Below the pieces are notes generated by a model. The model was not told the origin of the DNA. It searched no databases and was given only the letters and a program-made list of their open reading frames with translations. The translations under genes were made by a program, and so were the position numbers. Source: Candidatus Nealsonbacteria bacterium (lineage in GTDB: Bacteria; Patescibacteriota; Minisyncoccia; Minisyncoccales; MHMH01). Taken from it: 42,794 nucleotides of DNA. The stretch covers positions 1 to 42,794 of the forward strand of contig JACOYG010000001.1 of NCBI GenBank assembly GCA_016181985.1, in the 5' to 3' direction. Below, one piece after another: positions 3,099 to 25,328 of this stretch. The number at the start of each line of letters is the position of its first letter. The stretch's first letter is position 1.

Positions 3099-3105
3099 TT
3101 TAAAT

Positions 3106-7179: not shown

Positions 7180-8312
7180 ATAGATTTAATCGGCATTACT
7201 ATATAGATGTAGCTGGTGTCGGTTTTTGGTTTTAAGGCGGCGGGGCCGTCCTCTCCATTAAGCTCAAAAATAACCTCCGGTTCTTTTATATTTAAAAGAC
7301 CGTCTATTATAAATCTGTAATTAAAAGAAACCTCCATTTCTTTGGGAGAAGAATTATATTTTATTTGTCCCTGCAAAAAACTTTGATTTTCCCCTGATTC
7401 CGAATTTTGAGAGAATATTTCTATCCCCTCTTTTTGGGGAGTTAATTTAATTTTTACTTCATTAGTTTTTCCGCTGAAAATACCGGCGGTTTTAATGTGA
7501 TTTAAAAGTTTTTCTTTTGATAATACCGCCTGAACTTCATACTTTTTTGGAATTATACCCTGATAATCGGGATATTCTCCCTCAATAACCCGCGAAATTA
7601 TCTGCACTTGGGGATGCGGCGTTTCTGTCATTAAATATTCAAACAAAACTTGGTTTTGTGAAAAATAAAATCTTAATTTTCCTTCTTTTTCCGAAAAAAT
7701 ATTAATTATTTCTCTTACTGATTTTTGAGGAAGAATAAAAGAAAAATCTTGGTTTATTTTTTCTTCAAAAGATAAAACTTTTTCCGCCAACCTAAAACTG
7801 TCTGTAGTGGCCAGTGTCAGATTATTTTTTTTAAAATTAAAATAAACACCGGATAATTCAGGCCTATTTTGGTTCAAAACTACAAAATCAACCACCTGAG
7901 ATAACCCATTACAAAAATTATTGCAATTTAACTCTATAAAATTACTGCCTTCTATTTTAGGAATAATAGGAAATTCTTCGGCTGATAATCCTTTAATTTT
8001 AGTTTGATAATCCTGACAGTTGATATTAATTATCTGATTTTTTAATTCTAAATTAATTTTATCTTCGGGTAATAAATTAATAAAACTAGATAAAATTTTA
8101 GCCGGGACGGTTATTTTTCCTTCTTTTTCGGTTTTTATTAAAGACCAATATTTAATTCCTAATTCTAAATCAGTGGCGGATAAATTTAAAAAGTTTTTTT
8201 CGACGGAAATTAAAATATTATTTAAAATAGGCAGCGTTAAATTTTTACCAGCAACCCTGTTTATAAAATTTAACCCCTGATTTAAATTTTCTTTTAAAAC
8301 TGTAAATTTCAT
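7176..8312 (-). CDS. dnaN: DNA polymerase III beta sliding clamp
   Basis: 378 aa immediately downstream of dnaA. Clamp-like three-domain length and the typical N-terminus MKFTVLKENL..L..V. Confidence 0.88.
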   Translation of the reverse strand: MKFTVLKENLNQGLNFINRVAGKNLTLPILNNILISVEKNFLNLSATDLELGIKYWSLIKTEKEGKITVPAKILSSFINLLPEDKINLELKNQIININCQDYQTKIKGLSAEEFPIIPKIEGSNFIELNCNNFCNGLSQVVDFVVLNQNRPELSGVYFNFKKNNLTLATTDSFRLAEKVLSFEEKINQDFSFILPQKSVREIINIFSEKEGKLRFYFSQNQVLFEYLMTETPHPQVQIISRVIEGEYPDYQGIIPKKYEVQAVLSKEKLLNHIKTAGIFSGKTNEVKIKLTPQKEGIEIFSQNSESGENQSFLQGQIKYNSSPKEMEVSFNYRFIIDGLLNIKEPEVIFELNGEDGPAALKPKTDTSYIYIVMPIKSI

Positions 8313-8474
8313 ATTTAGTATATTATTAATTTATTATTGTTATTATAGATGTTAATAAATAAATTTTTTATACTTAATTGAATATAAATTTATCCTGTGA
8401 AAATATATTATTTAATTAAATTAATAAACTGTTAATTAAAAATTAAAAATTAAAAATTAAAAATTATCCACAAT
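8313..8474. other. Candidate oriC segment (AT-rich dnaA-dnaN spacer with DnaA box and tandem heptamers)
   Basis: Perfect consensus DnaA box TTATCCACA at 8464-8472, directly preceded by four tandem TTAAAAA heptamers (8436-8463). The whole spacer is almost pure A/T. Confidence 0.6.
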
Positions 8475-9839
8475 CTATAAACTATATATTTGGTCCTTAA
8501 TTAAGTTTATTTCCTCAGCTAAATTTTCATCTTTTTCTAATTCTTTAGATATTTTATTATAAGCATGAATGGCGGTGGTGTGATCTTTTCCTCCAAATTT
8601 TCTGCCGATAAATGGGAAAGAACTCTTTAATTCATCCCTTAAAATAAACATAGCCACTTGGCGAGGTTTCACAATTTCTTTTCTCCTAGAGACATCAAGA
8701 ATATCACCTTCTTTTAAATCGTAAAAAGAAGCCACGGATTTAATAATATTGTCCGGGTTAATCGCCTTTTTAGGAGAAAATATGACGTTTTTTAAGAGAG
8801 TTTTAGCTGTTTCCACGTCGGGAGTTTTATTATTCAACGCCTGATAAGCGGCCAGCCTATTCAGGGCCCCTTCCAATTCTCTTATGTTTCTTTGAATGTT
8901 TTCAGCGACATATTCGATAACTTCGTTAGAAAAATTAAGTTTTTTTTCTTGAGATTTTGTCTTCAAAATAGCTATTCTGGTTTCCGTATCGGGAAGGCTT
9001 ATATCGGCGATCATCCCTCCCTCAAAGCGCGATTTTAATCTTCCTTCCAAGGAAGAAATGGCTTTTGGCGGGCGATCGGAAGAAAGGATTATTTGTTTAT
9101 TTTTTTCATATAAATTATTGAAAATATGAAAAAACTCTTCCTGGGTTTTTTCTTTGCCGGCTATAAATTGGATATCATCAACTATTAAAACATCGATATC
9201 CTTATAAAGCAGTTTTAGTTTGTCTATGCTGCGATTTTGTATGGAACTCACTATGCCGGAGGCAAGTTTTTCCGAAGATAAATACTTTATTTTCTTTTCC
9301 GGGAACTTTTTTGAAATTTCATTTCCTATAGCCTGCATTAAATGTGTTTTGCCGAGGCCGGTTCCTCCGTAGATGAATAAGGGATTATAAGATGTGCCGG
9401 GACTGCGCACTACCGCCAAGGCAGCGGCTTGGGGCAATTCATTAAAGGGGCCCACCACGAAATTATTAAAAGTATATCGCGGGTTAAGATTGGTTTCTTT
9501 ATCCACTTTTAATTCAACGAACTCCAGTTGAGGAGAGTTGTTGTAAGAGTTGTCTATTAATTGGCTGGCGGAGATGTCCTTCGGCTTAGTTTCGGCATGG
9601 ACAACATTATATTTTATCTCTTTTATTTCCTCATCCAAGCTGTGGAGTATTTTAAATATCAATTTATTGTATTTATTTTCCAGCCATTCTTTGGAAAAAT
9701 TATTAGGGACGGAAACCACAACCCCCCCATTGTCTTTGGAAACAATATTTGTGTTTCTGAACCATGTTGCGAAGTTGGCCTTGGAAATATTAAATTGGAT
9801 TTGAGCAAGCAGGGCTTGCCATAATTCCTCTTTATCCAT
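8475..9839 (-). CDS. dnaA: Chromosomal replication initiator DnaA
   Basis: 454 aa. AAA+ Walker A GGTGLGKTHL, Walker B VLIVDDIQF and a C-terminal DNA-binding domain (GGKDHTTAIHAY). Confidence 0.95.
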   Translation of the reverse strand: MDKEELWQALLAQIQFNISKANFATWFRNTNIVSKDNGGVVVSVPNNFSKEWLENKYNKLIFKILHSLDEEIKEIKYNVVHAETKPKDISASQLIDNSYNNSPQLEFVELKVDKETNLNPRYTFNNFVVGPFNELPQAAALAVVRSPGTSYNPLFIYGGTGLGKTHLMQAIGNEISKKFPEKKIKYLSSEKLASGIVSSIQNRSIDKLKLLYKDIDVLIVDDIQFIAGKEKTQEEFFHIFNNLYEKNKQIILSSDRPPKAISSLEGRLKSRFEGGMIADISLPDTETRIAILKTKSQEKKLNFSNEVIEYVAENIQRNIRELEGALNRLAAYQALNNKTPDVETAKTLLKNVIFSPKKAINPDNIIKSVASFYDLKEGDILDVSRRKEIVKPRQVAMFILRDELKSSFPFIGRKFGGKDHTTAIHAYNKISKELEKDENLAEEINLIKDQIYSL

Positions 9840-9952
9840 ATAATTTTATTATCGGATTCATTGTACCACATGTCAAACAAGAACAAAATGAATTTAAAAG
9901 TCGGCTTATTGTTGATAAATTGGGTAAAAACTGTTAACATTTAATTAATTAT

Positions 9953-10087
9953 ATGTCATTCACTTATCAGCCAAAAAAGAAAAAAAGGAAAAGAGTCCAC
10001 GGCTTTATGACCAGACAAAGAACGAAGAATGGCAGAAGGACGATATCCAGGAGTAGAGATAAAAAGAGACGGCGGCTAGCGGTTTAA
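9953..10087 (+). CDS. rpmH: 50S ribosomal protein L34
   Basis: 44 aa ORF found by hand: MSFTYQPKKKKRKRVHGFMTRQRTKNGRRTISRSRDKKRRRLAV. Canonical position upstream of rnpA. Confidence 0.9.
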   Translation: MSFTYQPKKKKRKRVHGFMTRQRTKNGRRTISRSRDKKRRRLAV

Positions 10088-10091
10088 TTTT

Positions 10092-10165
10092 TAGGCGCTA
10101 GGGATTAGGGTTTAGCGTCTAGTGAGTTAAGACTAGACGCTAATTAACTAGACGCTAGACGCTAA
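10092..10165. repeat. TAGCGTCTAG-family repeat block A (rpmH-rnpA spacer)
   Basis: TTAGCGTCTAG (10112-10122) and CTAGACGCTAA (10133-10143) form a perfect 11 bp hairpin. Further CTAGACGCTA copies follow. Same motif set as blocks at 13419, 14618 and 15022. Confidence 0.8.
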
Positions 10166-10171
10166 TATTTT

Positions 10172-10516
10172 ATGCTGTCTAAGGAAAATCGTCTTAAAAA
10201 TACGAAAGAAATAGAATTGGTTTTTAAGAAAGGGAAAGGATTTAAGGCGGGATTTTTATTCCTTAAATTAGTCAGAAACGATTTAAAGACTAGCAGGTTT
10301 GCCTTTGTTGTGAGCAAAAAAGCCGTCCCGAAGGCCACGGATAGGAATAGAATAAAAAGACGGCTGAGGGATATAGTAAGAAGAAACGCGGCCCGCATAA
10401 AGGCGGGATTTGATTTAGTTATAATCGTCCAAAAAGGGATAGAGAGAGTAAAATTTCAGAAAATTAAAGAAGACGCGGAAGAGATTTTTAAGAAAGCCAA
10501 TTTATGGGATTTTTAG
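10172..10516 (+). CDS. rnpA: Ribonuclease P protein component
   Basis: 114 aa basic protein with the RNR motif region KAVPKATDRNRIKRRLRDIV. Conserved rpmH-rnpA-yidC order. Confidence 0.9.
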   Translation: MLSKENRLKNTKEIELVFKKGKGFKAGFLFLKLVRNDLKTSRFAFVVSKKAVPKATDRNRIKRRLRDIVRRNAARIKAGFDLVIIVQKGIERVKFQKIKEDAEEIFKKANLWDF

Positions 10517-11187
10517 GAGATATTTTTAATTTAATATTTTATCAGCCGCTATTAAAAGCGCTGATTCTGATATATAACTACCTCCCCGGCCATGACTTTG
10601 GCATCGCTGTAATTGTTTTGACTCTTTTAATAAAACTCGTTCTTTACCCCTTGGGAGCCAAGGGAATAAAATCTCAAAAAGCTCTTCAGGATCTCCAGCC
10701 AAAAATCAAAGAGCTCCAAGAGAAATTTAAAGACGATAAAAACAGGCAGGCCAAAGAAGTGATGGATCTTTATAGGAGGGAAAAGATAAATCCTTTTTCG
10801 GGATTTTTGCTTTTATTGATACAACTGCCGTTTTTGTTCGCTCTTTTCAAGGTTTTTGGAAATGGAGTTAAAGGAATGAGCGGAATCGATATGACTTTTT
10901 TAGGAACGATAAACCTGGCGCAAGCGTCGGTTGTTTTGGTCATACTCACAGGGCTGGCCCAGTTTTGGCAAGCAAGAATGATGAAACAGCCGCCTTCTTC
11001 AAAGAAGCAATCGGATTTTTCGAACATTATGCAAAAACAAACGATCTACTTTTTTCCTCTTTTTACCGTGTTTATCCTTTGGAAAATGCCTTCCGCTATC
11101 GCTCTTTATTGGCTGACGACAACGCTCTTTACAATTTTTCAGCAATATATTACACTTAGAAAGAATAAAAGCGATGTCGCAAACTAA
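10504..11187 (+). CDS. yidC: YidC/Oxa1-family membrane protein insertase (short form)
   Basis: 227 aa polytopic protein. Contains the KSQKALQDLQPKIKELQEKFKDD amphipathic loop typical of short YidC/SpoIIIJ, with conserved synteny. Confidence 0.85.
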   Translation: MGFLGDIFNLIFYQPLLKALILIYNYLPGHDFGIAVIVLTLLIKLVLYPLGAKGIKSQKALQDLQPKIKELQEKFKDDKNRQAKEVMDLYRREKINPFSGFLLLLIQLPFLFALFKVFGNGVKGMSGIDMTFLGTINLAQASVVLVILTGLAQFWQARMMKQPPSSKKQSDFSNIMQKQTIYFFPLFTVFILWKMPSAIALYWLTTTLFTIFQQYITLRKNKSDVAN

Positions 11188-11644
11188 CACAGAGAAAATT
11201 CAAGACATCATTAAGGAGTTTTTCAGTAAAACCGGAATTGCTCTTGAAGGGATAGAAATAAAAACTCCGCTCGATTCAACTATCCCCATTAATTTAAAAA
11301 TGGAGGAGCCTCAGACTTTAATCGGCGAAGGAGGGCAGACCCTCATGGAAGTGCAGCGTCTCTTGAAGATGGTTTTGCAGAGGAAAATTGCCTCGGACGC
11401 CCATTTTTATATCGACCTGGACATTAACGATTATAAGAAGAAAAAGACCAATTATTTGAAGGAAATGGCCAGATCGACCGCCGACGAGGTGTCTTTGGTT
11501 AAAAAAGAAAAATATCTGCCGGCAATGTCAGCTTACGACAGGAGGGTCGTTCATGTGGAGTTGGCCTCCAGGCAGGATATTGTGACCGAAAGCGTGGGCT
11601 ATGATCCGGAAAGAAAGGTGGTTATCAGGCCGCGGCTTCTTTAG
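11174..11644 (+). CDS. jag: Jag/KhpB-type RNA-binding protein (KH + R3H domains)
   Basis: 156 aa. R3H region LPAMSAYDRRVVHVEL. Follows yidC as in many bacteria. Confidence 0.8.
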   Translation: MSQTNTEKIQDIIKEFFSKTGIALEGIEIKTPLDSTIPINLKMEEPQTLIGEGGQTLMEVQRLLKMVLQRKIASDAHFYIDLDINDYKKKKTNYLKEMARSTADEVSLVKKEKYLPAMSAYDRRVVHVELASRQDIVTESVGYDPERKVVIRPRLL

Positions 11645-13418
11645 CCGCTTTTTTTATTTCTCTTAATTCTTTAACTTCTTCGGGGGCCGTGGTAATGAAT
11701 TTATTCTCGGCATCGGAAGCCACCACTTTTAAGGCGACATGTTTTTGTCCGGCGAAGAAAAGCCCCTCCCCCACCTGCGCGCCGGTGAGTAATTCTTTTT
11801 CCCAATCCGTCAGGTTGAATGTTTTTTGAACAACGCCGGCGGTTGAAGGGCTCTGTTTCATTAAAAATTGCAGAGAAGAGTTTGAAATTATCGGCTGGCC
11901 GTATTCCGATCTCATGAAATCGCTGACGTCCTGGGTGATTGTGGTCACTCCCAGCCAGTATTTTCTGGCCCTTTTGACTAATCCGAAAAGGAAAGACGCT
12001 CCGTCTTCGGAATGCATCAGCCACCAGGCCTCGTCAACCACCATAATCCTCTTTTTCAATTCGGAGCGTATTTTGTTCCAAATATAACGGGTGATGATAT
12101 ACATCGCCATGGGGCGCAACCCCTCTTCCATGTCTCTGATGCCAAAAGCCACGAAAGTATTATCCATTTTAACGGTAGACGGCTTATTAAAGAAATTAGC
12201 GTAAGTTCCTTTGGTGTATTTTCTGACGCGCCTTACCAAAGACTCGGTTCCTTCCATGGTGTTTAATACTGCTTCCATGTCGGACATTAAAGGCGGCTCG
12301 GCTTGAGAGAAATCTGAGGCAGGCGTGATATCTTTAGCCGCGTAAGTTTCGGTAATCGCCCGATCCATAATGGCATCTTCTTCGGGGGTGAGCCCGCCGA
12401 GCATTAAACGCATCAATCCTACCAAGTTGATAATATTTGACCTTAGTATGTCTTCGGGTTTTTCGTCTTCTCGCGGGATGGGCAAATCAAAGGGATTGAT
12501 ATGATGAGGGCTGGCCAGAGACATTTTAAAATAAGAGCCGCCGACCGCGTCTGATAATGATTCGTACTCGTTTTCGGGGTCGACAACAATAACATCCGTG
12601 CCCAGCATTAAAGAACGAAGAATTTCCACTTTAACGAAATAGCTCTTTCCGGAACCGGACTGGGCAAAAATCACCATATTGGCATTGGGCATGGAAAATC
12701 TGTCGAATAAAACCAAAGAGTTGTTGTGTTGGTTTATGCCGTAAAGAATGCCTTCGTTCGAGCTTAAGTCAAAAGAGACAAAAGGAAAAATACTGGATAA
12801 GGGGCCGGTGTTCATCGGCACATTGACGTCTAGCTGGTCCAAACCATAAGGAGAAGTTGAAACAAATCCCTCTTTTTGCTGGTAAAGAGAGGGCTTAATG
12901 TATATTAATTTTGATTCCAACATTGATCTAAGAGTGGTTTCAATGCTGTCCAATTCCTGCTCTTGGTCGGCGTAGACGGTCAAATAGAGCCCCAGCCTAA
13001 ACATTCTCTCTTGGGCAGTTTGAAGGCGGTCTCTTAGCTCTTCAATGTCCCTGTAGGCGGTTTCCAGGGCAGGATCCCTGACCAGGCCCTTGGATTCTCT
13101 TTCCATCAGCTCGGCCTGGATCTCCGTTACTCTTTTTCGCAGTTGTTTTAGAATCAAGCCGGCTTCAATGGGATGGATGAAAAAAGAGATATCCATCGGC
13201 ATATCTAAATTAATAATAGGAGAGAACCAGCCGGCCGTAAGATACCGAGGATAAGAGAAGATAAAATAAGAGCGGGCGAATCTCTCGCTTAATTTCAAGC
13301 TGGACTGATTTACTTCAATCGAAGCGGGCGCCACAATGTCCACCGCTCTGATCGCCTCGGTTTCAAAAATCTCTTCTTCCGGTATTTCTGTTTTTTTCTT
13401 TTTATTGAATAATTTCAT
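11625..13418 (-). CDS. VirB4/TraC/PrgJ-type T4SS ATPase, central + C-terminal (ATPase) part of a split gene
   Basis: 597 aa. Walker A AQSGSGKSY and Walker B RIMVVDEAWWLM. The N-terminal segment (APASIEV..YFIFSYPRYLTAGWF..DISFFIHP) matches the mid-region of Gram-positive VirB4 homologues. Confidence 0.85.
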   Translation of the reverse strand: MKLFNKKKKTEIPEEEIFETEAIRAVDIVAPASIEVNQSSLKLSERFARSYFIFSYPRYLTAGWFSPIINLDMPMDISFFIHPIEAGLILKQLRKRVTEIQAELMERESKGLVRDPALETAYRDIEELRDRLQTAQERMFRLGLYLTVYADQEQELDSIETTLRSMLESKLIYIKPSLYQQKEGFVSTSPYGLDQLDVNVPMNTGPLSSIFPFVSFDLSSNEGILYGINQHNNSLVLFDRFSMPNANMVIFAQSGSGKSYFVKVEILRSLMLGTDVIVVDPENEYESLSDAVGGSYFKMSLASPHHINPFDLPIPREDEKPEDILRSNIINLVGLMRLMLGGLTPEEDAIMDRAITETYAAKDITPASDFSQAEPPLMSDMEAVLNTMEGTESLVRRVRKYTKGTYANFFNKPSTVKMDNTFVAFGIRDMEEGLRPMAMYIITRYIWNKIRSELKKRIMVVDEAWWLMHSEDGASFLFGLVKRARKYWLGVTTITQDVSDFMRSEYGQPIISNSSLQFLMKQSPSTAGVVQKTFNLTDWEKELLTGAQVGEGLFFAGQKHVALKVVASDAENKFITTAPEEVKELREIKKAAKEAAA

Positions 13419-13499
13419 GTTTAGTGCTTAGTGAATTAGCGTCTAGCGTTTAGTGAATTAGCGTTTAATTCTAACTCACTAGACGCTAGACCCTAGCCG
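13419..13499. repeat. TAGCGTCTAG-family repeat block B, exactly filling the gap between the two VirB4 ORFs
   Basis: TTAGTGAATTAGCGT occurs twice in tandem, followed by the inverse unit AACTCACTAGACGCTAGA. TAG/TGA/TAA stops occur in every frame. Confidence 0.8.
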
Positions 13500-14159
13500 C
13501 TACTTTGCCAGTTCCGGAGGAATTTCAGGGTAATAGCCGACTTCGGCTTGCTTCGGGTGGTGCAAGCTCCAAAAAAGCTCAACAATCTCAGGCGTAGTCA
13601 AGGGCATGGCCTGAAGTCCGCATCTTCTTAACCCCAAGGCCACGAATTCCATTCTCTGCCATAATTGCTGTTTGGCCATCTGAAACTTTTCTTCGGTCAA
13701 AATGGGCAGCTGTGGCGTTCTTAAGAGCTTACCAGCATCGGCTCCTTTAGTTTCCAATAAAGTAAAAGGCACCACCACAAAAAAGTTTTTTGACATGATT
13801 TCTCCATATCTCCCGACCGGCGGAGCGCCCGAAACCACATCTTCGATAAATTTTCGGTACGCCGTAGTCTGGATTTTAAGAAGTTCGTTGGTTTGTTTCG
13901 CTTCCAGCGCCTTAATGCCGTCTATATAGCCGGTTATATTAAGCCGGCGCGATTGGATGATAATTTGCAAATCAAAATCCAGAGAATTTAAAAATTCCTG
14001 GAACTGATAAATAATGGAAGATTGCTCTTCGTCCGACTTTAAAGCGAAATTCAAAGAAGAAACCATCATAATGGCTCTCAATGCCTTGTTTTTCAGAATG
14101 GCTACGCCTTCTCTTATCTGTTCTATTTCCAAGAAATCTTGTGTGGATGAAACTTGCAT
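13500..14159 (-). CDS. VirB4 N-terminal domain protein (separate ORF)
   Basis: 219 aa. STQDFLEIEQIREGVAILKN..LNFALKSDEEQSSIIYQFQEFLNSLDFDLQIIIQSRRLNI follows the pattern of the first ~200 aa of Tn916-Orf16/PrgJ/TcpF-type VirB4 proteins. 219 + 597 aa equals a normal full-length VirB4. Confidence 0.65.
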   Translation of the reverse strand: MQVSSTQDFLEIEQIREGVAILKNKALRAIMMVSSLNFALKSDEEQSSIIYQFQEFLNSLDFDLQIIIQSRRLNITGYIDGIKALEAKQTNELLKIQTTAYRKFIEDVVSGAPPVGRYGEIMSKNFFVVVPFTLLETKGADAGKLLRTPQLPILTEEKFQMAKQQLWQRMEFVALGLRRCGLQAMPLTTPEIVELFWSLHHPKQAEVGYYPEIPPELAK

Positions 14160-14209
14160 AATGTTGAAATTGTTCGATTTGAAATTGTTCGATTTCGTAA
14201 ATCGAACAA

Positions 14210-14614
14210 TTAGTGTCCGACCTGGTCGGAAAGGTCTTTTAGCTTGCTCTTCCCCACCGCCGTGGGCACCGGGCTTTCTCTAATTCCCGCAGCTTCCGGT
14301 TTTTTAGCCTGGATTAATTTTAAAGGTGGCCCCACTTTTTTCTTCCAGAGATATATTTTGGGCCGCATGCGGTAAATAAAAATATTTTTAATGACTACGG
14401 GCAGGGGCCTGCCGTTGGATTTTCCAAAAGCCAATATGGCGGCGAAAGAAAAAATGACAAGCGACGCCATGATAAAGAAAAAAAAGTGTATGGTGAAATA
14501 AAGAACAAAGCAAATTGCCCCGGCTGTTCCGACATAAATAAACTGTTGAAAAGTCATGGGGCCTATCACCTTGGCCTTCTCCTCAATAAATTGTGGCACG
14601 GTAAATTGATCCAT
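14210..14614 (-). CDS. PrgI-family / VirB3-like small membrane protein
   Basis: 134 aa. N-terminal VPQFIEEKAKVIGPMTFQQF, then two TM helices, then NGRPLPVVIKNIFIYRMRPKIYLW. This is the layout and motifs of PrgI-like proteins encoded next to VirB4. Confidence 0.65.
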   Translation of the reverse strand: MDQFTVPQFIEEKAKVIGPMTFQQFIYVGTAGAICFVLYFTIHFFFFIMASLVIFSFAAILAFGKSNGRPLPVVIKNIFIYRMRPKIYLWKKKVGPPLKLIQAKKPEAAGIRESPVPTAVGKSKLKDLSDQVGH

Positions 14615-14617
14615 TAT

Positions 14618-14657
14618 TTTAGTGAGTTAGCGTCTAGCGTTTAGTGAGTTAGTGAAC
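14618..14657. repeat. TAGCGTCTAG-family repeat block C (left inverted arm of the four-helix-bundle cassette)
   Basis: TTTAGTGAGTTAGCGTCTAGCGTTTAGTGAGTTAGTGAAC. Its reverse complement resembles block D on the other side of the 14649-15017 gene, and it overlaps that gene's last codons and stop. Confidence 0.8.
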
Positions 14658-15017
14658 GGGCGGTTTATTTTCTAATTTATTAATTAAAACATTCAACATT
14701 TTTTGTATTTCTTCCAACAGCGCGTTAGCGGCTTGGGATTTAATATTCGGATATAATTCTTCGCCGATTATCAATTGCGTTTCCAGTTCGGCAGAAGAAC
14801 CATAGCTGATTCTCAAAAATTGCAAAAATTCTTTCCGATTTTTTCTTAAATAACCTTCGGCAATGTTCGAAGGGATGGATACTGCCGCCCGTCGCATTTG
14901 GTTTGATAGCCCGTAGGTTTCATCCTTAGGAAAGCCGCTCGTTAATTCGTATACTTTCTTAACTAAGCCAATAGATTTTTGCCATACCGTTAAATCCTTG
15001 TAAGATTTTAAATACAT
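14649..15017 (-). CDS. Four-helix-bundle protein (23S rRNA intervening-sequence protein family; Avd-like fold)
   Basis: YKDLTVWQKSIGLVKKVYELTSGFPKDETYGLSNQMRRAAVSIPSNIAEGY...SYGSSAELETQL is the family signature. ATG at 15017 preferred over the GTG at 15026 used by the ORF track. Confidence 0.9.
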   Translation of the reverse strand: MYLKSYKDLTVWQKSIGLVKKVYELTSGFPKDETYGLSNQMRRAAVSIPSNIAEGYLRKNRKEFLQFLRISYGSSAELETQLIIGEELYPNIKSQAANALLEEIQKMLNVLINKLENKPPVH

Positions 15018-15021
15018 AACA

Positions 15022-15085
15022 GTCACTAAACGCTAATTCACTAAACACCGGTTCACTAGACGCTGACTCACTAGACGCTAACTTA
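15022..15085. repeat. TAGCGTCTAG-family repeat block D (right inverted arm of the cassette)
   Basis: GTCACTAAACGCTAATTCACTAAACACCGGTTCACTAGACGCTGACTCACTAGACGCTAAC. Opposite orientation to blocks B and C. Confidence 0.8.
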
Positions 15086-15550
15086 CTACACAATGGGTTC
15101 ATGATAAACGTCTTTGCCCCGCGGCCTTGGCGGCTCCTCCCTTATTGGTTCTTCCTTGGCGGGAAGTGTCGTTGTTTTTTCTATTTCTGTTGGCTTGGCC
15201 TTATCGATTATTTGATTTTTAAGATCGTCCGCCATTTTTTGCGCTTCTTTTTTTGAGATGTTCAAACTTTTCCCTAATAATTCCGGCAAATCTTTAAATG
15301 AAATTTTACCTTCCACGCAATTCATGACTAATCCCGATATTTTAGTCCCGGGCAGATTTTCAAAGATTCTGCTTCTTTCGCTCGGGGCATTAAGACCGGT
15401 TGATTCAATAAATTTTTTAATACCCTCGTCTTGATCTTTTTGTAGTCCATATTCTTCCAGTAATTTGGTGATTATTAAACTGCTTTCTTCCGGAATGTCA
15501 AAATCTCTCGTTTTTTCTAAGATTTCATTATCGCTATTTTTGTTTATCAT
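15086..15550 (-). CDS. Hypothetical soluble acidic protein in the T4SS-like operon
   Basis: 154 aa ORF packed tightly between the VirB6-like gene and repeat block D. No TM segment and no recognisable motif. Confidence 0.55.
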   Translation of the reverse strand: MINKNSDNEILEKTRDFDIPEESSLIITKLLEEYGLQKDQDEGIKKFIESTGLNAPSERSRIFENLPGTKISGLVMNCVEGKISFKDLPELLGKSLNISKKEAQKMADDLKNQIIDKAKPTEIEKTTTLPAKEEPIREEPPRPRGKDVYHEPIV

Positions 15551-15559
15551 AACTTTATA

Positions 15560-17401
15560 TTAAACTTTCCACTTCGGGTTTGTCGACATTTTTTTGATTT
15601 GCTTTCCAAGGCCAATAGGAAGACTCGTGGCGTTGTTTAACGTTTTAAGAATCTCCTTTTTAATCTCGGGTTTTGCGTGCCGTGTTATATCCTCAAATTT
15701 TGCGTCATCTTCCAATATATGGACGACCACTTCGCTGTTTTGATATGCTTCTTTCTGTGTCTTTTCCAAAAGATCCTTAGTGGTCATTTTATCTAACGCC
15801 TCGATAATTGTTTTGCCTATTTTCGGAGCCAGGTCCGGTCTCCTTTCCATAATTTTATCCGGACTGACTCCCTTTCTGACCGCTTCCGCGATAAATTTTT
15901 CTTCATTTGCGCCGATTTTCCCTTCCTTGGTTATAATATCTATAATAGCCGCTATCTTACCGGAGCTGCGAGCTATTTTTTTAGAGTCTTCTTTTAACAA
16001 TTCGGCCTGCAAATAATTTCTTCTATCTTCAGTATCTTTTGGAGCCCTCTTAAGTATTCTTGCTTTATCTTCCGCAAGAGTAGCTTCTTCTATTGATCGG
16101 ATCTTGGCTTGGGCGATTTCGCGTCTCCTGGTCCATGCCCCCAGCTGGGATTGTTCTCTCGGCGTAATGGTGCCGGCTGCTTCCTTCGCCTTTAATGGCG
16201 TAATTATTCTCTCCGCCGCCTTAGCTCTTTCGCCTTCTTGCCATGTCCTACCTCTTAGCGTGGCTTGTTTCGCTTTTCCGGCTAAGTAGCCGGTGCCTCC
16301 AGATATTGCCATGCCCCCTAATTTCCAAAAGTCGTCCATTGCGGCCGGGCTCATTTTTTTAGCGATAGTTAAAGTAAAGACTAAATAAACAATCAAAAAA
16401 ATGAACTTCGAATAATCGGCAGCAAGATTAGTGCCCCTTATATTAAAAGCCGTTGCCGGAGCCACGGCAGCAAAAAATTTTAATCCCAAACCCATTACGA
16501 AAAAAACCACAACTCCCAAAAATGTCCACTGGAATAAGGCTCCGAGCCATTGGCGAAAATATTTTTGGGTTTGAGGCAGTATATAGGCCGCAAAAGCCAA
16601 GGGGGCCGAAACGGCTAATAACCAAATAATGGCTATTCTTAATAAAAACAACAAAGCATAGACCAAGAAAACGAGCCCGCCGACAATACTGAATGCCCCT
16701 AAAATAAATGTTTCGCTGAATGTTCCGAATAGGCCCTCTCCTAAAACTGCTGTGCCAAAAAATATCAAGCGCGCTACGTTGGCGAATGGGATTAAGGCGA
16801 CGATATAGTATGGCGCAAAAAACCAAGCGGCATACTCACCCACGGCTTTTGCTGCGGCTCCGGCCATTTGGCTGGCAATCGGTACCGCCATTCCGGCGGT
16901 TCCAAAAAAAGATTGCTTGAATGCATTTTGGACAACCCACCCCATATCAGCCACCATTTTGACCAAGAGTAAGCTAAAATTAACCAAGAGGGCTATGACG
17001 ATTAATCTGGGCAGGGCTTTTTTCATCCCAACATTTTCAGCTTTGAAGATGTAGGAGATGGCAATAAAAATAAAAATTAAAATAAAAGACATGTTTACCA
17101 GTCCGCTTGTAAAATGCCAACCGGCATTTACCAGGTCATTATTTAACCCTACGGGCAAGGATGACGCCCAATCCAAGAAGGCGGCTGAAAAAGAAATAAA
17201 GAATCCCCCCGCCAAGGCAAACATTAATAGATAAAAAAGCCAGGCTACGATCCGATCCAGAAAGTCTAGAGCGTCTAATTGCATTGAAGCCAGCGACGGG
17301 ATAACGTCAAAAAAAGCGTTGGCTTGCTGTAAACAAAAGAAAAGTCCAAAAAAGATAAGAAAAAAAACCGGAATTTTATTAAATCTAAAGATTTTCCTCA
17401 T
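15560..17401 (-). CDS. Polytopic membrane protein, VirB6/TrbL-like, with long charged C-terminal domain
   Basis: 613 aa. Signal-like N-terminus, about 8 or more hydrophobic helices over the first ~370 aa, then a Lys/Glu-rich soluble tail. The assignment rests on topology and position next to VirB3/VirB4-like genes. Confidence 0.55.
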   Translation of the reverse strand: MRKIFRFNKIPVFFLIFFGLFFCLQQANAFFDVIPSLASMQLDALDFLDRIVAWLFYLLMFALAGGFFISFSAAFLDWASSLPVGLNNDLVNAGWHFTSGLVNMSFILIFIFIAISYIFKAENVGMKKALPRLIVIALLVNFSLLLVKMVADMGWVVQNAFKQSFFGTAGMAVPIASQMAGAAAKAVGEYAAWFFAPYYIVALIPFANVARLIFFGTAVLGEGLFGTFSETFILGAFSIVGGLVFLVYALLFLLRIAIIWLLAVSAPLAFAAYILPQTQKYFRQWLGALFQWTFLGVVVFFVMGLGLKFFAAVAPATAFNIRGTNLAADYSKFIFLIVYLVFTLTIAKKMSPAAMDDFWKLGGMAISGGTGYLAGKAKQATLRGRTWQEGERAKAAERIITPLKAKEAAGTITPREQSQLGAWTRRREIAQAKIRSIEEATLAEDKARILKRAPKDTEDRRNYLQAELLKEDSKKIARSSGKIAAIIDIITKEGKIGANEEKFIAEAVRKGVSPDKIMERRPDLAPKIGKTIIEALDKMTTKDLLEKTQKEAYQNSEVVVHILEDDAKFEDITRHAKPEIKKEILKTLNNATSLPIGLGKQIKKMSTNPKWKV

Positions 17402-18819
17402 TAATATTGAAGATTAATCATTTTAACCGATCTAAAAAATGTTTCTCCGAAAGCTGACATGTCCCTAACCTCTTTAGAAACAACCACGGGCGGGTTGTCG
17501 GAATTCGCTCGGTAATTATCCAAAGAGTATAAAATCAATTGACAACTCCCTTCGGATTGTACCGACTTGACAGTTTCATTCAGGATTGGCACTCCGTTTT
17601 CCGGACCCTTAAGCGTCATAATTGGATTGGTATATTTAATGTCTCTATAAAGAGTCGATTCTTTACAATCGCCGCCTTGCTCTTCCTTCGGAAGGCTAAA
17701 CCCGATTTTCCATTCTTCTTGGTTGCCGGGCAGTTCCGGCATTTTTAATTTAGTTAATTGCGGATTAATAGTGTTGAGAATAAGGACTGAACCCAAAAGT
17801 AAAACCAAGCCCAAACCGGCGGACCTAATTCTGTCCATGGCTTCCTTCATCTTCCCGGCGTTACCGGCCGAAGTAAGATATTGGACTCCGGCTATAACTA
17901 AAGCAATAAAAGCAGCAAATCCGCCCAAAGAAATTCCCCAGTCATATATATATTTAATTAATCCGGGGATGTCGGTTTTTTCATTTAGTTTTGATCTGAG
18001 GGGTGAGTCAGGCCATGCAATTTCTAGCTTTCCGGTAGTTGATCCTGCGCCCGTGCCAGTCCCAGCCCCAGAAGTTCCCGGAGGCGGAGGACCAGCTATT
18101 TCGAAGGAATATGATTTATCACCAAATTTGCCCTTACTGTCTGTCGCCGTTATTGTGACTTGGTAGGTACCACCGAATGCGGGCGCTCCTTCTAATATTC
18201 CCTCGGAATTAAATTTTTCACCGGATTTTCCAAAAGATAGCCCGGGAGGGAGAGTGCCCTGGCCGCCCCACTTATAAGGAGGAGCGCCGTCAGTGGCCTG
18301 AAATTTTATTGTAAGATATTGATTTGCGGTTCCAGTGATGGGAGATGCTGGAGAAATAATATTTGGCGGCTTAGCCGATGCCGTGCCAGGAGCCGGCGCA
18401 GTGGCGGGAGCGATATTAATTGAGAAAGGTATTGTTCCAAAATTTCCTTGCGAATCTTCCAAAAATAACCTGAAAGCAAAACTCCCATCAAGATCGGGCG
18501 TTCCTTCGAGCAAGCCCGACAATTTGTTTACAGATAATCCACGAGGTAATGTTGTTTGATAACCCGATGGAATAGAGCCGGTGGGAGCTTGGACAACCGC
18601 GTTTTTATAAGGCAATAAAACGGAAGGGAAATATTTTTGTAAATTTTCTGAATAAGGGATGAATATTTTACCGTCATGCAGGGCGGTATAGCCAGACACA
18701 GGGCTCACTTGGCTAAAAACATTATTAATGCCGAAAAAAGCCGTGCCGATAATTATAAAAAATAAAATATAAAAAGATTTTTTCATACCCCTGCTTATAT
18801 TATTGCCGCTTCGCGGCAT
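17401..18819 (-). CDS. Secreted Ig-like repeat protein fused to a VirB2/TrbC-like pilin hairpin plus a C-terminal extra domain
   Basis: Start moved to the ATG at 18819 (AGGAG 6 nt upstream; extended -10 TGGTATAAT at 18839-18847; an upstream terminator lies inside the longer ORF). Putative-Ig motifs LPRGLSV..LEGTP and LPPGLSFG..GILEGAP. Pilin-like hairpin ISLGGFAAFIALVIAGVQYLTSAGNAGKMKEAMDRIRSAGLGLVLLLGSVLIL. Confidence 0.7.
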   Translation of the reverse strand: MPRSGNNISRGMKKSFYILFFIIIGTAFFGINNVFSQVSPVSGYTALHDGKIFIPYSENLQKYFPSVLLPYKNAVVQAPTGSIPSGYQTTLPRGLSVNKLSGLLEGTPDLDGSFAFRLFLEDSQGNFGTIPFSINIAPATAPAPGTASAKPPNIISPASPITGTANQYLTIKFQATDGAPPYKWGGQGTLPPGLSFGKSGEKFNSEGILEGAPAFGGTYQVTITATDSKGKFGDKSYSFEIAGPPPPGTSGAGTGTGAGSTTGKLEIAWPDSPLRSKLNEKTDIPGLIKYIYDWGISLGGFAAFIALVIAGVQYLTSAGNAGKMKEAMDRIRSAGLGLVLLLGSVLILNTINPQLTKLKMPELPGNQEEWKIGFSLPKEEQGGDCKESTLYRDIKYTNPIMTLKGPENGVPILNETVKSVQSEGSCQLILYSLDNYRANSDNPPVVVSKEVRDMSAFGETFFRSVKMINLQY

Positions 18820-18873
18820 AATTTTCTCCTTATTTATAATTATACCACTTTTATTGTTGTAAATGAACTGTGG

Positions 18874-18910
18874 AAAACAAAAGAGACCTAATTTAGTTAG
18901 GTCTCTTTTC
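18874..18910 (-). terminator. Rho-independent terminator after the 18919-19545 gene
   Basis: Minus-strand AAGAGACCTA / TAGGTCTCTT 10 bp stem followed by TTTGTTTT. Confidence 0.75.
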
Positions 18911-18918
18911 TTAATCAT

Positions 18919-19545
18919 TTAGCTTACCTTCCTGGCGTGATACAGCACGATGCCGGTTTGCTTTTTGCCGTATACGTCAGGCAGGACGATCGATCCTGCA
19001 TATTCCCCGCGCATTATAATCATATCGCCTTTTTGCAGTCTGCCGCCGGTGAACGGTAGTATGTCGGAGCTAGATCTTTCGATCTTTGCCATCAGTACTG
19101 TGCCGTTAACCTTTGGCCCGAAGAAAAAATAGAAGTAGAGGGGGTCTCCGTTGAACAAATCCCCTTCGTAGATTGCGGAAACATTAACAACGTCTCCGTT
19201 TTTGTATTTGCCGGCCTGAGCGTTAGCAATGAATTCCTCTGCGGTCATAATGCCATTTGGTGCCACAGTCGGCATGGGAGTCGGTGTCAGCGGCGTTTTA
19301 GTTGGGTTCGGCGTCGGGGCGTTTGCTGGCATGGCCGTCGGCGCAGTCGTTGGTGTGGCTGGCGTTGGCTTCACCGTCGGCGTCGTCGTAGGCGCAGCGG
19401 TCGGTACCACGGTCGGCGCTGGCGTCGCAGTCGGCGTTGGCTCGGGTTTCCCCTCGAAAAAGCCAGCGCTTAAAGCGGTGTAGGCGAATACTGACGCCGC
19501 GATTATGACGGCGACAATGATCCATATCAACTTTTTCTTGTTCAC
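18919..19545 (-). CDS. Membrane-anchored protein with Pro/Thr-rich linker and OB-fold-like (tRNA_anti-like) C-terminal domain; GC-rich
   Basis: GTG start with GGAGG 6 nt upstream. N-terminal TM, an ~65 aa PT-rich linker, then MTAEEFIANAQAGKYKNGDVVNVSAIYEG... resembling OB-fold tRNA_anti-like proteins. Base composition is clearly GC-richer than its neighbours. Confidence 0.6.
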   Translation of the reverse strand: MNKKKLIWIIVAVIIAASVFAYTALSAGFFEGKPEPTPTATPAPTVVPTAAPTTTPTVKPTPATPTTAPTAMPANAPTPNPTKTPLTPTPMPTVAPNGIMTAEEFIANAQAGKYKNGDVVNVSAIYEGDLFNGDPLYFYFFFGPKVNGTVLMAKIERSSSDILPFTGGRLQKGDMIIMRGEYAGSIVLPDVYGKKQTGIVLYHARKVS

Positions 19546-19577
19546 AAAGAACCTCCTCTCGGTTTAATTCTACATAT

Positions 19578-19606
19578 ATTATATCTCTTTATGTGCCCCC
19601 TGTCAA
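19578..19606 (-). promoter_or_regulatory. Consensus sigma70-type promoter for the 18919-19545 gene
   Basis: Minus strand reads TTGACA - 17 nt - TATAAT (plus-strand TGTCAA 19601-19606, ATTATA 19578-19583). Confidence 0.7.
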
Positions 19607-20677: not shown

Positions 20678-23122
20678 TTATATCGAGTACCAATTACCGA
20701 AAATTCCAACTTGATAACCGATTAATTTCAGGAATATGTTCACGAGCGTCCAAGCAATGGCAATAATAGCCATGCCAATTCCGGCTGATTTCCAAAGAGA
20801 TATTACTCCGGCCAAGGTGGCCGCCTTTCCTAAAGAAAAATAAAACATAAGGCCGGAGTATATTGTGAGCAACACTAAAATGACTGGCACCATCCTCAGC
20901 AAGAGAAAGTCAAAAATAATTTTAACCATTAAAAATACGTGTTTTACCTGGCAAGGCTCTCTTTCGTTCCAAGGCGTCTTGGGGTTATCCGTGTTTTTCC
21001 CGCAAGGTATCAGCCCCCCTTTGCTGGCCCCCGTCGGTTCGGTCAAATTAAAATTCCAAGAGCCAGACCAATTACTGGCCTCAACGCAGTTTTCGTCTAA
21101 ACAAGAACGCACCTGCCATTGATAATTTCCCAAGCAGTCTAACTTGATAAAAGCCGAATTTGTGTGAATAATTTGTGGCGATACTATTTCCTGCCCCGCC
21201 AATAATTTGCAGGATTCATTTACTTCGTCAGAAGACAGGGTTAGATATCGTATTTTATATTGGTATGTTTTAACTCCGGAGTTTTCGTTCCAAGAAACAT
21301 AATTTTGATCGGTTTGGAGTTGGCCGCCGTTTTCCGGCGATGGATCGGATGGTATGGGCAAGCGGAAGGTTGTAAATGTTTGAGCGGGACCATACTGGCC
21401 GCAGGCCCAGCCATCATGGGCGCAGGTTTTAACTTGCCAGTTATAATCTGCTTCTTGGCGCACATTGTATTCCGGATAAGCAATAGAAAACTCCGGCTTA
21501 TCGACGGTTTTTTCCAAATTCAAACCATCTCCGGAAATTTTTAAAATATATGACTTAGCCCCCGAGACTTCCTGCCATTTAAGATTTATTGGAATGGGAA
21601 CGCTGCTTGATCCCGGTGCGGGATTTTCTAAAATCGGCGGCTGGCCGGTAGTTTTGAAAGACCATTCTTGGCTAAAATTTTCGCATTTTGAGCCCACAAA
21701 ATCAGAGCAAGCCCTTACCTTCCATTTATAAATAGTATTTAATTTAAGAATATCTACGTCTAAAATATCTGATTGCGTCCCCTGGACTATAGTGGGAGCC
21801 CAATTATTTATCTGGTATACGAAAGAATTCATTCCTGGCGGCGAAGACCAACTTAGAGCAAAGGGGAATCCAATCGGGTTTTTTCCTTCCGGGTCATTTT
21901 GCGGAGAAACAAGAGAAATATCTTTGAAACTTTTTTGCTCGCTGGTAAAACTCCAGCGCTGGCTATAATCCTTGCACTCTCCCCCCGAGAGTCCGCCATC
22001 TTCATCGAGACAAATTTTTACTTCCCAGTCGTAGATCGTGTCTTTAGTGAAAAAATTAAGACCACTATCGGTAAAATCGGAATAAAGCAATTTTTCTATC
22101 TGATTGGGATCCCTGCGTTCTTTTCTTATTACCCAAGAATCGCACTGTTCTCCTTGCGATGCGTTGAATAAAACAGGCGAGCAGATTCTTTTTCCCCCTT
22201 CCTCTAAAAATACCCTGAACCGGTAAGATTTAGCTTCCTTAATGTCGCACCAGTCAATTTTTAAAGGTGAGTCGGGAGTTATTACCGCCGCGCCGCCTTT
22301 GGGGCCGGCCCAGTCGGGATCTTCCGGGGAAACGAGTTCCGGCGCCATGCCTGTCTTAAAGCTCCAAGCGCTGGCGGGGCCGCAGTTTTTTCCGTCAACC
22401 GAACAGCAGGCCTGGGCCTGCCAGGAATAATCAGTATTGGATTTTAAAAAACAAGCGCCTTTTTCTTCCCTCAAACCGCTATACTCGGATTTGGTCAGAA
22501 TTTCAGGAACAGCGCCGCCTTCGGTATTAAGCTGAAACAAGTATGACTTTGGACCATCGGGCGCTTTTAGCCAACCGACAACATCATTCCAATCAAACTT
22601 TACCGGCAGGAGGACGCTGGCGCTTCCCATGTCTTTATCTGCTTGGTCGGAATAATCGGGACTGTCGTAATAACGGGGATCTTTCGGCGCCTCCAAGCAT
22701 TGGCCGGCAGAGCACGAGCATGAAGGCAAGGTATCGTTATAATTCTTGGGGCCATAAGCCGATTTTCTGCTGATTCCTCCGGGTCCACAGGCTTGCCATG
22801 GCTGGCAAGACGAGCTTTTACTCCAATCTCCCTCTCGTATATTGTATTTGCAAGAATAAGAAGGACAATCTACTCCCGACGCGGACTCTAAGGTATACCA
22901 TTCAAATACGCGCCTTGTTTTAATATCGGCGCCCGTATCATTTGAGATCCCGCAAATACTAGAGCAAGTATATTCGTCCCAAACATTTGAATCCGGGCAA
23001 GTTGGCGGCGGAGGACAGACAACGCCTCCCCCACCTCCTTCTTCGGCATTGATTTTTCCGGGTAAAATAAAACCGGCTAAGCTTATTAAAAAAAATAACA
23101 AAAGAATATATGGCTTTTTCAT
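20678..23122 (-). CDS. Large secreted Cys-rich repeat protein (five Fn3/Ig-like modules) ending in a VirB2/TrbC-like pilin hairpin
   Basis: 814 aa. Signal peptide and a Cys-rich N-terminal region. Five modules each start l-W-x-v-x-gaKsY and end Y-x-W-x-V-x-x-C...C...W-x-F-x-T. The C-terminus LIPCG...PC-QVKHVFLMV...two TM helices parallels the free pilin at 31253-31681. Confidence 0.75.
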   Translation of the reverse strand: MKKPYILLLFFLISLAGFILPGKINAEEGGGGGVVCPPPPTCPDSNVWDEYTCSSICGISNDTGADIKTRRVFEWYTLESASGVDCPSYSCKYNIREGDWSKSSSCQPWQACGPGGISRKSAYGPKNYNDTLPSCSCSAGQCLEAPKDPRYYDSPDYSDQADKDMGSASVLLPVKFDWNDVVGWLKAPDGPKSYLFQLNTEGGAVPEILTKSEYSGLREEKGACFLKSNTDYSWQAQACCSVDGKNCGPASAWSFKTGMAPELVSPEDPDWAGPKGGAAVITPDSPLKIDWCDIKEAKSYRFRVFLEEGGKRICSPVLFNASQGEQCDSWVIRKERRDPNQIEKLLYSDFTDSGLNFFTKDTIYDWEVKICLDEDGGLSGGECKDYSQRWSFTSEQKSFKDISLVSPQNDPEGKNPIGFPFALSWSSPPGMNSFVYQINNWAPTIVQGTQSDILDVDILKLNTIYKWKVRACSDFVGSKCENFSQEWSFKTTGQPPILENPAPGSSSVPIPINLKWQEVSGAKSYILKISGDGLNLEKTVDKPEFSIAYPEYNVRQEADYNWQVKTCAHDGWACGQYGPAQTFTTFRLPIPSDPSPENGGQLQTDQNYVSWNENSGVKTYQYKIRYLTLSSDEVNESCKLLAGQEIVSPQIIHTNSAFIKLDCLGNYQWQVRSCLDENCVEASNWSGSWNFNLTEPTGASKGGLIPCGKNTDNPKTPWNEREPCQVKHVFLMVKIIFDFLLLRMVPVILVLLTIYSGLMFYFSLGKAATLAGVISLWKSAGIGMAIIAIAWTLVNIFLKLIGYQVGIFGNWYSI

Positions 23123-25252: not shown

Positions 25253-25328
25253 AAATCAACGAATAGCGAATCGGTTACGAATATACGAATTCGTATATTC
25301 GCGATAAATTCGTTATTCGTTGATTTTT
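25253..25328. terminator. Long compound palindrome / bidirectional terminator between convergent genes
   Basis: Outer arms AAAATCAACGAATA.CGAAT / ATTCGTTATTCGTTGATTTT. Perfect central 24 bp palindrome CGAATATACGAATTCGTATATTCG (25278-25301). Confidence 0.7.

Follow-up and report, generated by a model that had tools for sequence, protein, structure and literature searches.

The question raised by this locus is why a gene of the family named '23S rRNA intervening-sequence protein' should lie between two protein-coding genes of a type IV secretion (T4SS) operon, enclosed by arrays of short tandem repeats that are inverted relative to each other. The locus is part of Candidatus Nealsonbacteria contig JACOYG010000001.1 (GCA_016181985.1), of which a stretch of 42,794 nt was analysed (the window; all coordinates are window positions), and it was set beside related or comparison loci that carry L-numbers (L013, L059 and others). 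Investigation of the junction and of its counterparts in other genomes points, with moderate confidence, to a cassette of the intervening-sequence (IVS) type, apparently mobile and placed precisely between a stop and a start codon, as one member of a widespread class of mini-cassettes. The features of the junction, in the order of the minus strand, are as follows:

15086..15550, minus strand: upstream operon gene of 154 aa without a Pfam match, C-terminus ...RPRGKDVYHEPIV, left side of the junction
15018..15088, minus strand: 5' arm (block D), a tandem array of TAG-containing 7/8-nt units, recognised by Tandem Repeats Finder (TRF) and by inverted pairs with 14618-14652
14649..15017, minus strand: cargo gene, encoding a 122-aa four-helix-bundle (4HB) protein (PF05635/TIGR02436), on the evidence of Pfam, NCBIfam, PDB 2GSC and the dN/dS ratio (omega)
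14618..14657, minus strand: 3' arm (block C), the inverted complement of the 5' arm, on the evidence of sequence, pairing, fold and a core 18-mer
14210..14614, minus strand: downstream PrgI/VirB3-like gene of 134 aa (PF12666, E 1.6e-8), right side of the junction

Regarding the cargo, the assignment to the 4HB/IVS family that the sequence-only reading had made is established at the level of profile matches. The protein matches PF05635 ('23S_rRNA_IVP') with an E-value of 6.9e-36 and 123.1 bits, above the curated cutoff of 33.8, with residues 7-109 aligned to profile positions 1-105/106, and it also matches TIGR02436 (121.9 bits, cutoff 24) and NF008911 (142.4 bits, cutoff 137). The open reading frame (ORF) would extend over 14649..15026 (-) with a GTG start; the ATG at 15017 is the likeliest start and gives the 122-aa product. 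The sole solved relative by sequence is Xanthomonas XCC0516 (PDB 2GSC, E 2e-20), a crystallised protein with a 4HB fold that assembles as a homopentamer. Both neighbours are those named in the same reading, the 154-aa ORF on one side and the PrgI-like gene on the other, and both are members of a minus-strand T4SS operon that also includes a T4SS pilin, a TrbL/VirB6-like gene, a TraC-like gene (13500-14159) and a VirB4-like ATPase (11625-13418).

The arms fit the space between the genes closely. The first TAG of the 5' arm (15086-15088) is the stop codon of the 154-aa ORF, and the arm stops 4 nt short of the 4HB gene's ATG; within it, TRF reports an array at 15023-15088 with a period of 15 (7+8), 4.4 copies and the consensus TCACTAGACGCTAAC. 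The 3' arm takes in the stop codon of the cargo gene and the two sense codons before it (GTT CAC TAA = V H *), as had been noticed from the letters, and stops 3 nt short of the PrgI-like gene's ATG, the cassette measuring 471 nt from stop to start. That the two blocks are mutually inverted and bracket the gene is confirmed by arm pairs of 18-20 nt with 89-94% complementarity and by one perfect 13-nt pair, and the core 18-mer of the arms occurs in six copies in the window against 0.01 expected by chance. The pairing of the arms that had been postulated is also seen in silico, with the predicted RNA fold of 14600-15110 (-) having a long outer stem that closes the cassette (minimum free energy -131.6 kcal/mol, z = -4.0), and none of 100 shuffled sequences was as stable.

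The same anatomy was found in other genomes. A scan with a VirB4 alignment of species-representative genomes yielded 80 T4SS loci from Nealsonbacteria, Staskawiczbacteria and other Parcubacteria, and cargo genes in the T4SS loci were found with our own hidden Markov model (HMM) and with jackhmmer searches. Three kinds of cargo were recognised, namely the 4HB clade of the window (HB1), a second 4HB clade (HB2) and GxxExxY/PDDEXK_3 proteins (TIGR04256). It had been asked whether other copies of the 4HB gene share such flanks, and in relatives from the Candidate Phyla Radiation (CPR) they do: flanks built of short-unit repeats were present at 28/28 distinct cargo genes (about 85 CPR T4SS loci), and the two arms are mutually complementary in nearly all cassettes. 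The units vary by cassette (TAGCGTC, TAGGGTC, TAGGCAC, TTAGCTT, GTATCTT, TTAAGTG, the 9-mer GTTAGAGAC, AAATCC/GAATTT, CTAATTA, CGAAT and GCGGAAT), and arm type tracks the clade of the cargo, HB1 genes having TAG units, HB2 genes AAATCC/CTAATTA units and GxxExxY genes CGAAT/GCGGAAT units. In the 12 core HB1 cassettes the TAG-TAG spacing is 7 nt in 38 of 58 intervals and the CTA-CTA spacing is 7 nt in 28 of 42. The description of the arms as stop-rich holds in part: stop density is about 1.5 times that of controls in HB1 and HB2 arms, while the GTAT-type and GxxExxY arms are not enriched and the 5' arm of the window leaves one reading frame open because its period is 15, so that the idea of a stop in all three frames is true only in part.

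To express the relation between the flanks, a score was used that gives the best ungapped complementarity of the upstream to the downstream flank. Cargo genes (n = 28) had a median score of 14.5 and control ORFs (n = 861) one of 7 (Mann-Whitney p 3.6e-17), and a score of at least 14 was reached by 16/28 cargo genes and by 10/861 controls, several of these ten being neighbours of cassettes or RAYT (REP-associated tyrosine transposase) genes with repetitive extragenic palindromic (REP) sequences. Duplex energy, with medians of -46 kcal/mol for the arms of one cassette and -29 kcal/mol for arms of different cassettes, was dropped as a statistic in favour of this score because it is confounded by the GC content of the locus.

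The closest homologues of the cargo protein are 65-81% identical to it. The context of eight of them was looked up. Seven belong to T4SS operons of other CPR bacteria, at junctions that vary (154-aa-ORF/PrgI, PrgI/TraC-like, after VirB4, both sides of PrgI), and the eighth lies between lnt and another gene; inverted arms are present at all eight. Many homologues are on contigs of about 1 kb, as would be expected if the arms break metagenome assemblies, and the arm-gene-arm unit explains why such genes are frequently met on very short metagenome contigs. The cargo is on the strand of the operon in all CPR cases, which fits a promoterless gene that depends on read-through.

Evidence for mobility comes from the comparison of empty and occupied sites in close relatives, in which PrgI is 86-93% identical and the flanking protein ends are the same; the C-terminus of the 154-aa ORF (...RPRGKDVYHEPIV) is common to L013, L099, L100 and L105, and orthologues of the PrgI-like gene are present in L013 and L099-L106. 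This comparison, which had been suggested as a check, revealed empty, solo-hairpin, cassette and replaced states at one junction, that between the 154-aa ORF and PrgI: it is empty in L099 (TAA, 9 nt, ATG), holds a 50-nt solo hairpin in L100 and L106 and the TAG-type cassette in the window, and in L013 (VirB4 93% identical) and L105 it is occupied by a distantly related 4HB gene with GTAT-type arms. At the PrgI/TraC-like junction a cassette is present in 9 of 74 cases and at the TraC-like/VirB4 junction in 5 of 82, with roughly ten solo hairpins at each, the rest being mostly tight (<=25 nt at the former). In L059, two 487-bp copies that are 100% identical lie at two junctions of one operon, and the identity has its exact limits at the upstream stop codon and the downstream ATG. 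A solo hairpin of L050 (2100-2245) has arms identical to those of the HB2 cassette at the next junction (2926-3404) and keeps the first 22 nt of the ORF and the last ~30 nt of the cassette interior; since both the arms and the ends of the interior are retained, this hairpin is an internal-deletion derivative. Taken together, these alleles show that the cassette is a discrete, exchangeable DNA unit that is gained, lost, duplicated to other junctions, replaced and decaying to solo hairpins. Regarding decay, the same locus was also seen in two samples (L119 3515-3733 and L120 3375-3734), where a second 4HB gene at the PrgI/TraC-like junction is a full-length gene of 119 aa in one sample and appears as a fragment of 72 aa in the gene call of the other, and this pair may represent a cassette gene caught while decaying.

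Solo hairpins with the same type of unit as the cassette arms are also present in the window itself:

13421..13502, no strand assigned: solo hairpin of the TAG-unit family with a gene-less loop, at the TraC-like/VirB4-like junction (fold z -6.4 and -5.9)
10092..10166, no strand assigned: solo hairpin of the TAG-unit family, at the rpmH/rnpA junction (fold z -6.2 and -5.6)

Both are closed, with loops of 9-11 nt. The former fills the junction between the TraC-like and VirB4-like genes and is kept in L013 at 2160-2233, and the latter fills the junction of rpmH (9953-10087, +) and rnpA (10172-10516, +). DNA contigs from four sequencing runs of the source groundwater samples were compared with the region; the arms have 2-4x depth in these contigs and at least one further solo hairpin lies elsewhere, giving at least three sites of solo hairpins in the samples of this organism, and no empty-site allele of the window cassette was found among the contigs of the four runs. 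A terminator scan found no terminator-like site with a T-run at 10092-10166, 13421-13502, 14618-14657 or 15018-15088. The arms thus do not match an intrinsic terminator, which combines a GC-rich stem with a T-run, and an Rfam scan of the window at the gathering threshold returned four tRNAs only, with no rRNA and no RNA family at the arms.

The history of the cargo is also one of long residence. Among HB1 genes dN is 0.13-0.28 and dS is saturated, and omega is about 0.06-0.13 where it could be computed, which shows purifying selection on the cargo protein. Between loci, the 4HB protein diverges to a similar degree (71-75%) as VirB4 does (65-71%). The complementarity of the arms and the 7-nt TAG pattern persist although synonymous sites are saturated, so the arms must be either constrained or homogenised. 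The proposal that the locus is an insertion module without a transposase thus stands as regards the empty, solo and replaced junctions, the L059 copies and the L050 derivative, and has to be amended in that the cassette is not a sporadic insertion and is also a long-term resident.

Outside CPR bacteria, 4HB genes with inverted heptamer arms were found in operons on cyanobacterial plasmids, with one located between nrdB and nrdA in Nostoc edaphicum (GTAGGGA/TCCCTAC arms, -90 kcal/mol), one between cas10 and cmr3 in Picosynechococcus, and others in plasmid operons of Nostoc punctiforme and Trichormus, the Trichormus gene lying beside a TrbI/VirB10 gene and having TCAGGAG x5-7 / TCCTGAC arms. Seven 4HB genes of viral contigs were compared; recognisable repeat arrays flank five of them on either side, and two genes (L133 and L134) reach the complementarity threshold. 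In Xanthomonas, a GGGAATC x4 array lies 6 nt after accB and overlaps the start of XCC0516 (supplement of PMC4692102).

Regarding the way in which such a unit could persist in an operon, the proposed class would have in common a promoterless small gene inside two inverted arms of short, mostly 7-nt, tandem units, with a TIGR02436 4HB protein as its cargo here and the second 4HB clade or a GxxExxY/PD-(D/E)XK protein elsewhere. The cassette would be transcribed within the T4SS operon mRNA, the likely source of this transcript being the following promoter:

19578..19606, minus strand: consensus sigma-70-like promoter (12/12) upstream of the T4SS operon, from a promoter scan

A comparable promoter was not found in the 5' arm by the same scan. 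In the transcript, the arms would pair as a duplex of roughly 40 bp and isolate the insert from the operon, and RNase III would most likely cut this duplex, as it does in the 23S rRNA IVS of Coxiella; by this analogy the stem of the window is a plausible RNase III substrate. Excision of the cassette from the operon mRNA by RNase III, which we infer from the rRNA case, would release the cargo RNA and split the operon transcript while leaving the flanking genes neither frameshifted nor fused, and it is proposed that insertion into an essential, tightly coupled operon is tolerated for this reason. Spread could, speculatively, proceed by recombination or repair between similar arm arrays, perhaps aided by cargo proteins that act on their cognate arms.

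Several observations weigh against this reading. No transposase, integrase or target-site duplication was found, none of the last being evident at the boundaries of the L059 copies or at the junction compared between the window and L099, where the boundaries coincide with stop and start codons. The occurrence of seven of eight homologues in T4SS operons together with a divergence like that of VirB4 indicates long vertical residence, with room for a role beneficial to the host. Among sequencing runs searched for the sequences of the window, L010 and L105, only groundwater DNA runs came up and no RNA run. As a sign of selection at the level of RNA, G·U-type and A·C-type changes in the stems were compared on the sense strand; stem mismatches numbered 20 of each type, with no excess of G·U-compatible changes on the sense strand, and average stability is slightly higher for antisense than for sense duplexes, so there is no sign that selection sees the structure of the sense RNA, and a role of the arms at the level of DNA fits equally well. 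Beyond CPR bacteria, a cyanobacterial 4HB gene between cas6 and cas4 (L096) has direct arrays on both sides, and the 4HB genes of L094, L098 and L126 are without clear arms.

Among known systems, the cassette works most like an IVS, and the gene-less solo hairpins are its relatives. The 23S rRNA IVS of Coxiella burnetii has a stem of 28-bp terminal inverted repeats that is cut by RNase III, an S23p ORF, and three tandem heptamers (GACAGAT) just upstream of this ORF; the ORF is decaying and probably untranslated, and IVSs with ORFs have long been suspected to be mobile (PMC4990558). The cassette resembles the 23S IVSs of Coxiella, Leptospira and others in its cargo family (PF05635/TIGR02436), the lack of a transposase, terminal inverted repeats that pair as a stem and leave the ORF in its loop, tandem heptamers adjoining the ORF as in Coxiella, and size (428-444 nt in Coxiella and 471 nt here, stop to start). 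It differs in that its arms consist wholly of tandem units, that its cargo is under purifying selection whereas the Coxiella ORF is decaying, that RNase III excision has been demonstrated for the rRNA IVS and would apply to the cassette by analogy, and that it occupies a junction of a protein-coding operon instead of helix 25 or 45 of 23S rRNA; not being in rRNA, it falls outside the strict definition of a 23S IVS.

REPtrons are IS200-like RAYT genes between inverted REP/BIME palindromes, with many solo REPs; they have one small gene within inverted hairpin-forming repeats, gene-less intergenic copies, and a repeat type that follows the lineage of the gene. The cassette shares the flanking and solo repeats; however, its cargo is PF05635 and not an IS200-like HUH/Y1 transposase, and its arms are tandem 7-nt arrays while a REP is a single GC-rich palindrome, so identity with a REPtron was rejected for want of the HUH/Y1 transposase. 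IS200-like/RAYT-type genes (…YHIFNRG…NHYHFL…; called by eye from motifs) were seen in L048 (740-1472) and L086 (2364-3069), with GC-rich palindromes such as TCCCGAAAGCCGGGCTTTCGGGA on either side, so that CPR genomes contain REPtron-like units alongside the heptamer cassettes. MITEs (miniature transposable elements with inverted repeats) and Rickettsia palindromic elements (RPEs) are comparable to the solo hairpins, which are short, gene-less and palindromic and occur in several copies; as in a MITE, the L050 solo hairpin shares its ends with a full cassette and lacks the internal gene, and a heptamer hairpin in frame inside ksgA recalls RPEs inside genes, but no target-site duplication or cognate transposase was identified and the arms are tandem arrays.

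Intergenic heptamer arrays have been described as TAACTGA in Beggiatoaceae, Cyanobacteria and Bacteroidetes, as GGGAATC in Xanthomonas, where 70-75 convergent, hairpin-capable array pairs are known, and as GGGGAYT and short tandemly repeated repetitive (STRR) arrays in Nostoc and Calothrix; they often end at a start codon or overlap the upstream stop, and some units stop all three frames (PMC4679880, PMC4692102). The 7-nt units of the cassette are likewise intergenic and abut start and stop codons, whereas the published studies did not tie their arrays to 4HB or GxxExxY genes and the arrays here are the two arms of a cassette; a literature search returned no paper linking genes of either kind to heptamer arrays. 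The weak relationship to Avd, the accessory protein of diversity-generating retroelements (DGRs), was borne out by distant homology within the same 4HB family (PF22296 E 1e-5; NF033474 E 5.6e-5). The NF033474 score of 23.4 bits is below the equivalog cutoff of 80, no reverse transcriptase domain was found among the window ORFs scanned, and no template/variable repeat pair was seen in the window; because of the score and the missing reverse transcriptase, identity with a DGR Avd protein was rejected.

Three other explanations have to be weighed against that of an apparently mobile, IVS-type cassette. The arms could be sites of recognition and processing at the level of DNA, where the single-stranded or supercoiled state would let them form hairpins or cruciforms, on which the cargo (the GxxExxY nuclease in some cassettes, a nucleic-acid-binding 4HB pentamer in others) acts to spread or maintain its cognate arms and solo hairpins, in which case the RNA stem would be incidental. 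This would parallel the action of RAYT transposases on REP sequences. In favour of it, the inverted repeat copies around the gene have solo counterparts scattered through the same genome, arm type follows the three cargo clades, G·U and A·C mismatches are symmetric (20:20), and the CPR loci examined include two (L048, L086) with true RAYT genes between REP palindromes. One cargo family, moreover, has a PD-(D/E)XK nuclease fold (PMC3424549). We nevertheless regard this system of DNA-level action as rather unlikely, in view of the demonstrated role of the homologous rRNA IVS as an RNA-processing substrate (PMC4990558) and of the strict co-orientation with the operon and exact stop-to-start placement, which point to a constraint on expression. 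Neither a target-site duplication nor a cleavage signature was seen, and PF05635 proteins are not known to have a catalytic motif.

Quite unlikely, in our judgement, is a post-transcriptional module of benefit to the host, in which the 4HB protein, as a regulator or chaperone, would bind the hairpins of heptamer arrays in mRNAs (those of its own arms and the solo ones at other junctions) and tune processing, stability or translational coupling of highly expressed operons such as the T4SS, the cassette being a domesticated resident and not a selfish element. Strong purifying selection on the cargo protein would be explained, as would the VirB4-like divergence and T4SS location of seven of the eight homologues looked up and the solo hairpins of the same unit type at the rpmH/rnpA and TraC-like/VirB4 junctions of the same genome, and a regulatory network has been proposed for the intergenic TAACTGA heptamer arrays (PMC4679880). 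Such a role is difficult to reconcile with the absence of a cassette from about 65 of 74 and 77 of 82 junctions in related T4SS operons, with close relatives of which one (L099) is empty and another has a distantly related 4HB gene with different arms, with cyanobacterial homologues in unrelated operons (nrd, CRISPR-Cas), and with the decay of the Coxiella ORF (PMC4990558). Finally, the locus could be nothing special, i.e. an ordinary small gene lying by chance between two heptamer repeats or hairpins, or one whose arms are terminators or attenuators. Cargo-free heptamer arrays are indeed common in the window (23621-23745, 41019-41122, 42399-42527, 25247-25332) and are known from other phyla; however, flank complementarity is enriched at cargo genes (16/28 vs 10/861, p 3.6e-17), the arms co-vary within each cassette, arms and gene move as a single unit, and no terminator-like T-run site is present at the TAG-type arms, so this explanation is disfavoured and very improbable.

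The locus and its relatives tie together the function of the very large S23p/4HB family, the origin of rRNA IVSs and the intergenic heptamer repeats of several phyla, and the arm-gene-arm arrangement provides a concrete unit whose empty, solo, occupied and replaced alleles occur naturally. Should processing of the arms take place in RNA, selfish DNA would have a way to live harmlessly inside the essential, translationally coupled operons of minimal genomes, and if the cargo proteins act on the arms, a new repeat-and-protein system would be at hand. A bolder proposal, which we put forward only tentatively and hold to be possible yet doubtful, is that inverted heptamer arrays with a 4HB (TIGR02436) or GxxExxY (TIGR04256) gene form one unrecognised class of mobile elements across phyla with a REPtron-like logic. 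The 23S IVSs would then be copies that landed in rRNA, the intergenic heptamer repeats (STRR/GGGGAYT of Cyanobacteria, GGGAATC of Xanthomonas, TAACTGA of Beggiatoaceae and those of CPR bacteria) would be solo footprints, and the cargo proteins would be cognate repeat-binding or repeat-processing factors.

Regarding the surroundings of the cassette, the junction between the PrgI-like and TraC-like genes of the window (14160-14209, 50 nt) holds a different family of small hairpin or tandem repeat (TTGAAATTGTTCGAT x2.1; ...GATTTACGAAATC...), and similar 'TTACGAAAT' hairpins occur at junctions of relatives, including the TraC/VirB4 junctions of L015 and L099. In L092, inverted arms of 104 nt (1484-1587 and 2034-2137; 88% complementary; ATGAAGT/ATGGGAT) enclose the PrgI-like gene itself, an example of how two similar hairpin elements can come to flank a core gene of the operon.

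Arrays of other unit types are found elsewhere in the window. A heptamer-unit hairpin of the AAATCC/GAATTT type (23621-23745, z -2.3) lies in frame within rsmA/ksgA (23122-24084, -; PF00398, E 6.7e-57), which gains ~42 residues between 'GDILKL' and 'FKVVGNLPFY' with the ORF intact. Heptamer arrays at 41019-41122 reach the ATG of nusA (41124-42470), and a second array at 42399-42527 encodes the C-terminal tail of its product (…KKKSEARSTKSETNSNDENSKSKTV*) and extends beyond the stop codon. In other genomes, HB2-type cassettes have arms similar to these nusA arrays; the fold of these AAATCC/GAATTT arrays was not significantly better than that of shuffled sequences and they were not counted as hairpins. 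Between convergent M23 peptidase and DksA/TraR-like genes lies an 86-nt near-perfect palindrome (25247-25332, -47.7 kcal/mol, z -9.6) of CGAAT-type units that resemble the arms of GxxExxY cassettes; it has A/T runs on either side and may serve as a bidirectional terminator.

The window apparently spans the neighbourhood of the replication origin (7176-11644), with dnaN, dnaA, rpmH, rnpA, yidC and a jag/R3H gene, and the T4SS operon (11625-19606), behind its 12/12 promoter, follows directly after these genes, a layout that agrees with a published note of T4SS loci near the origin in Patescibacteria (PMC12102498). Further along (30356-33331 and 31253-31681), a cluster encodes an NYN-domain protein, a DUF6036 nucleotidyltransferase and a Fic/DOC protein, and another small gene for a T4SS pilin (PF18895), the second in the window, lies at a great distance from the main operon.

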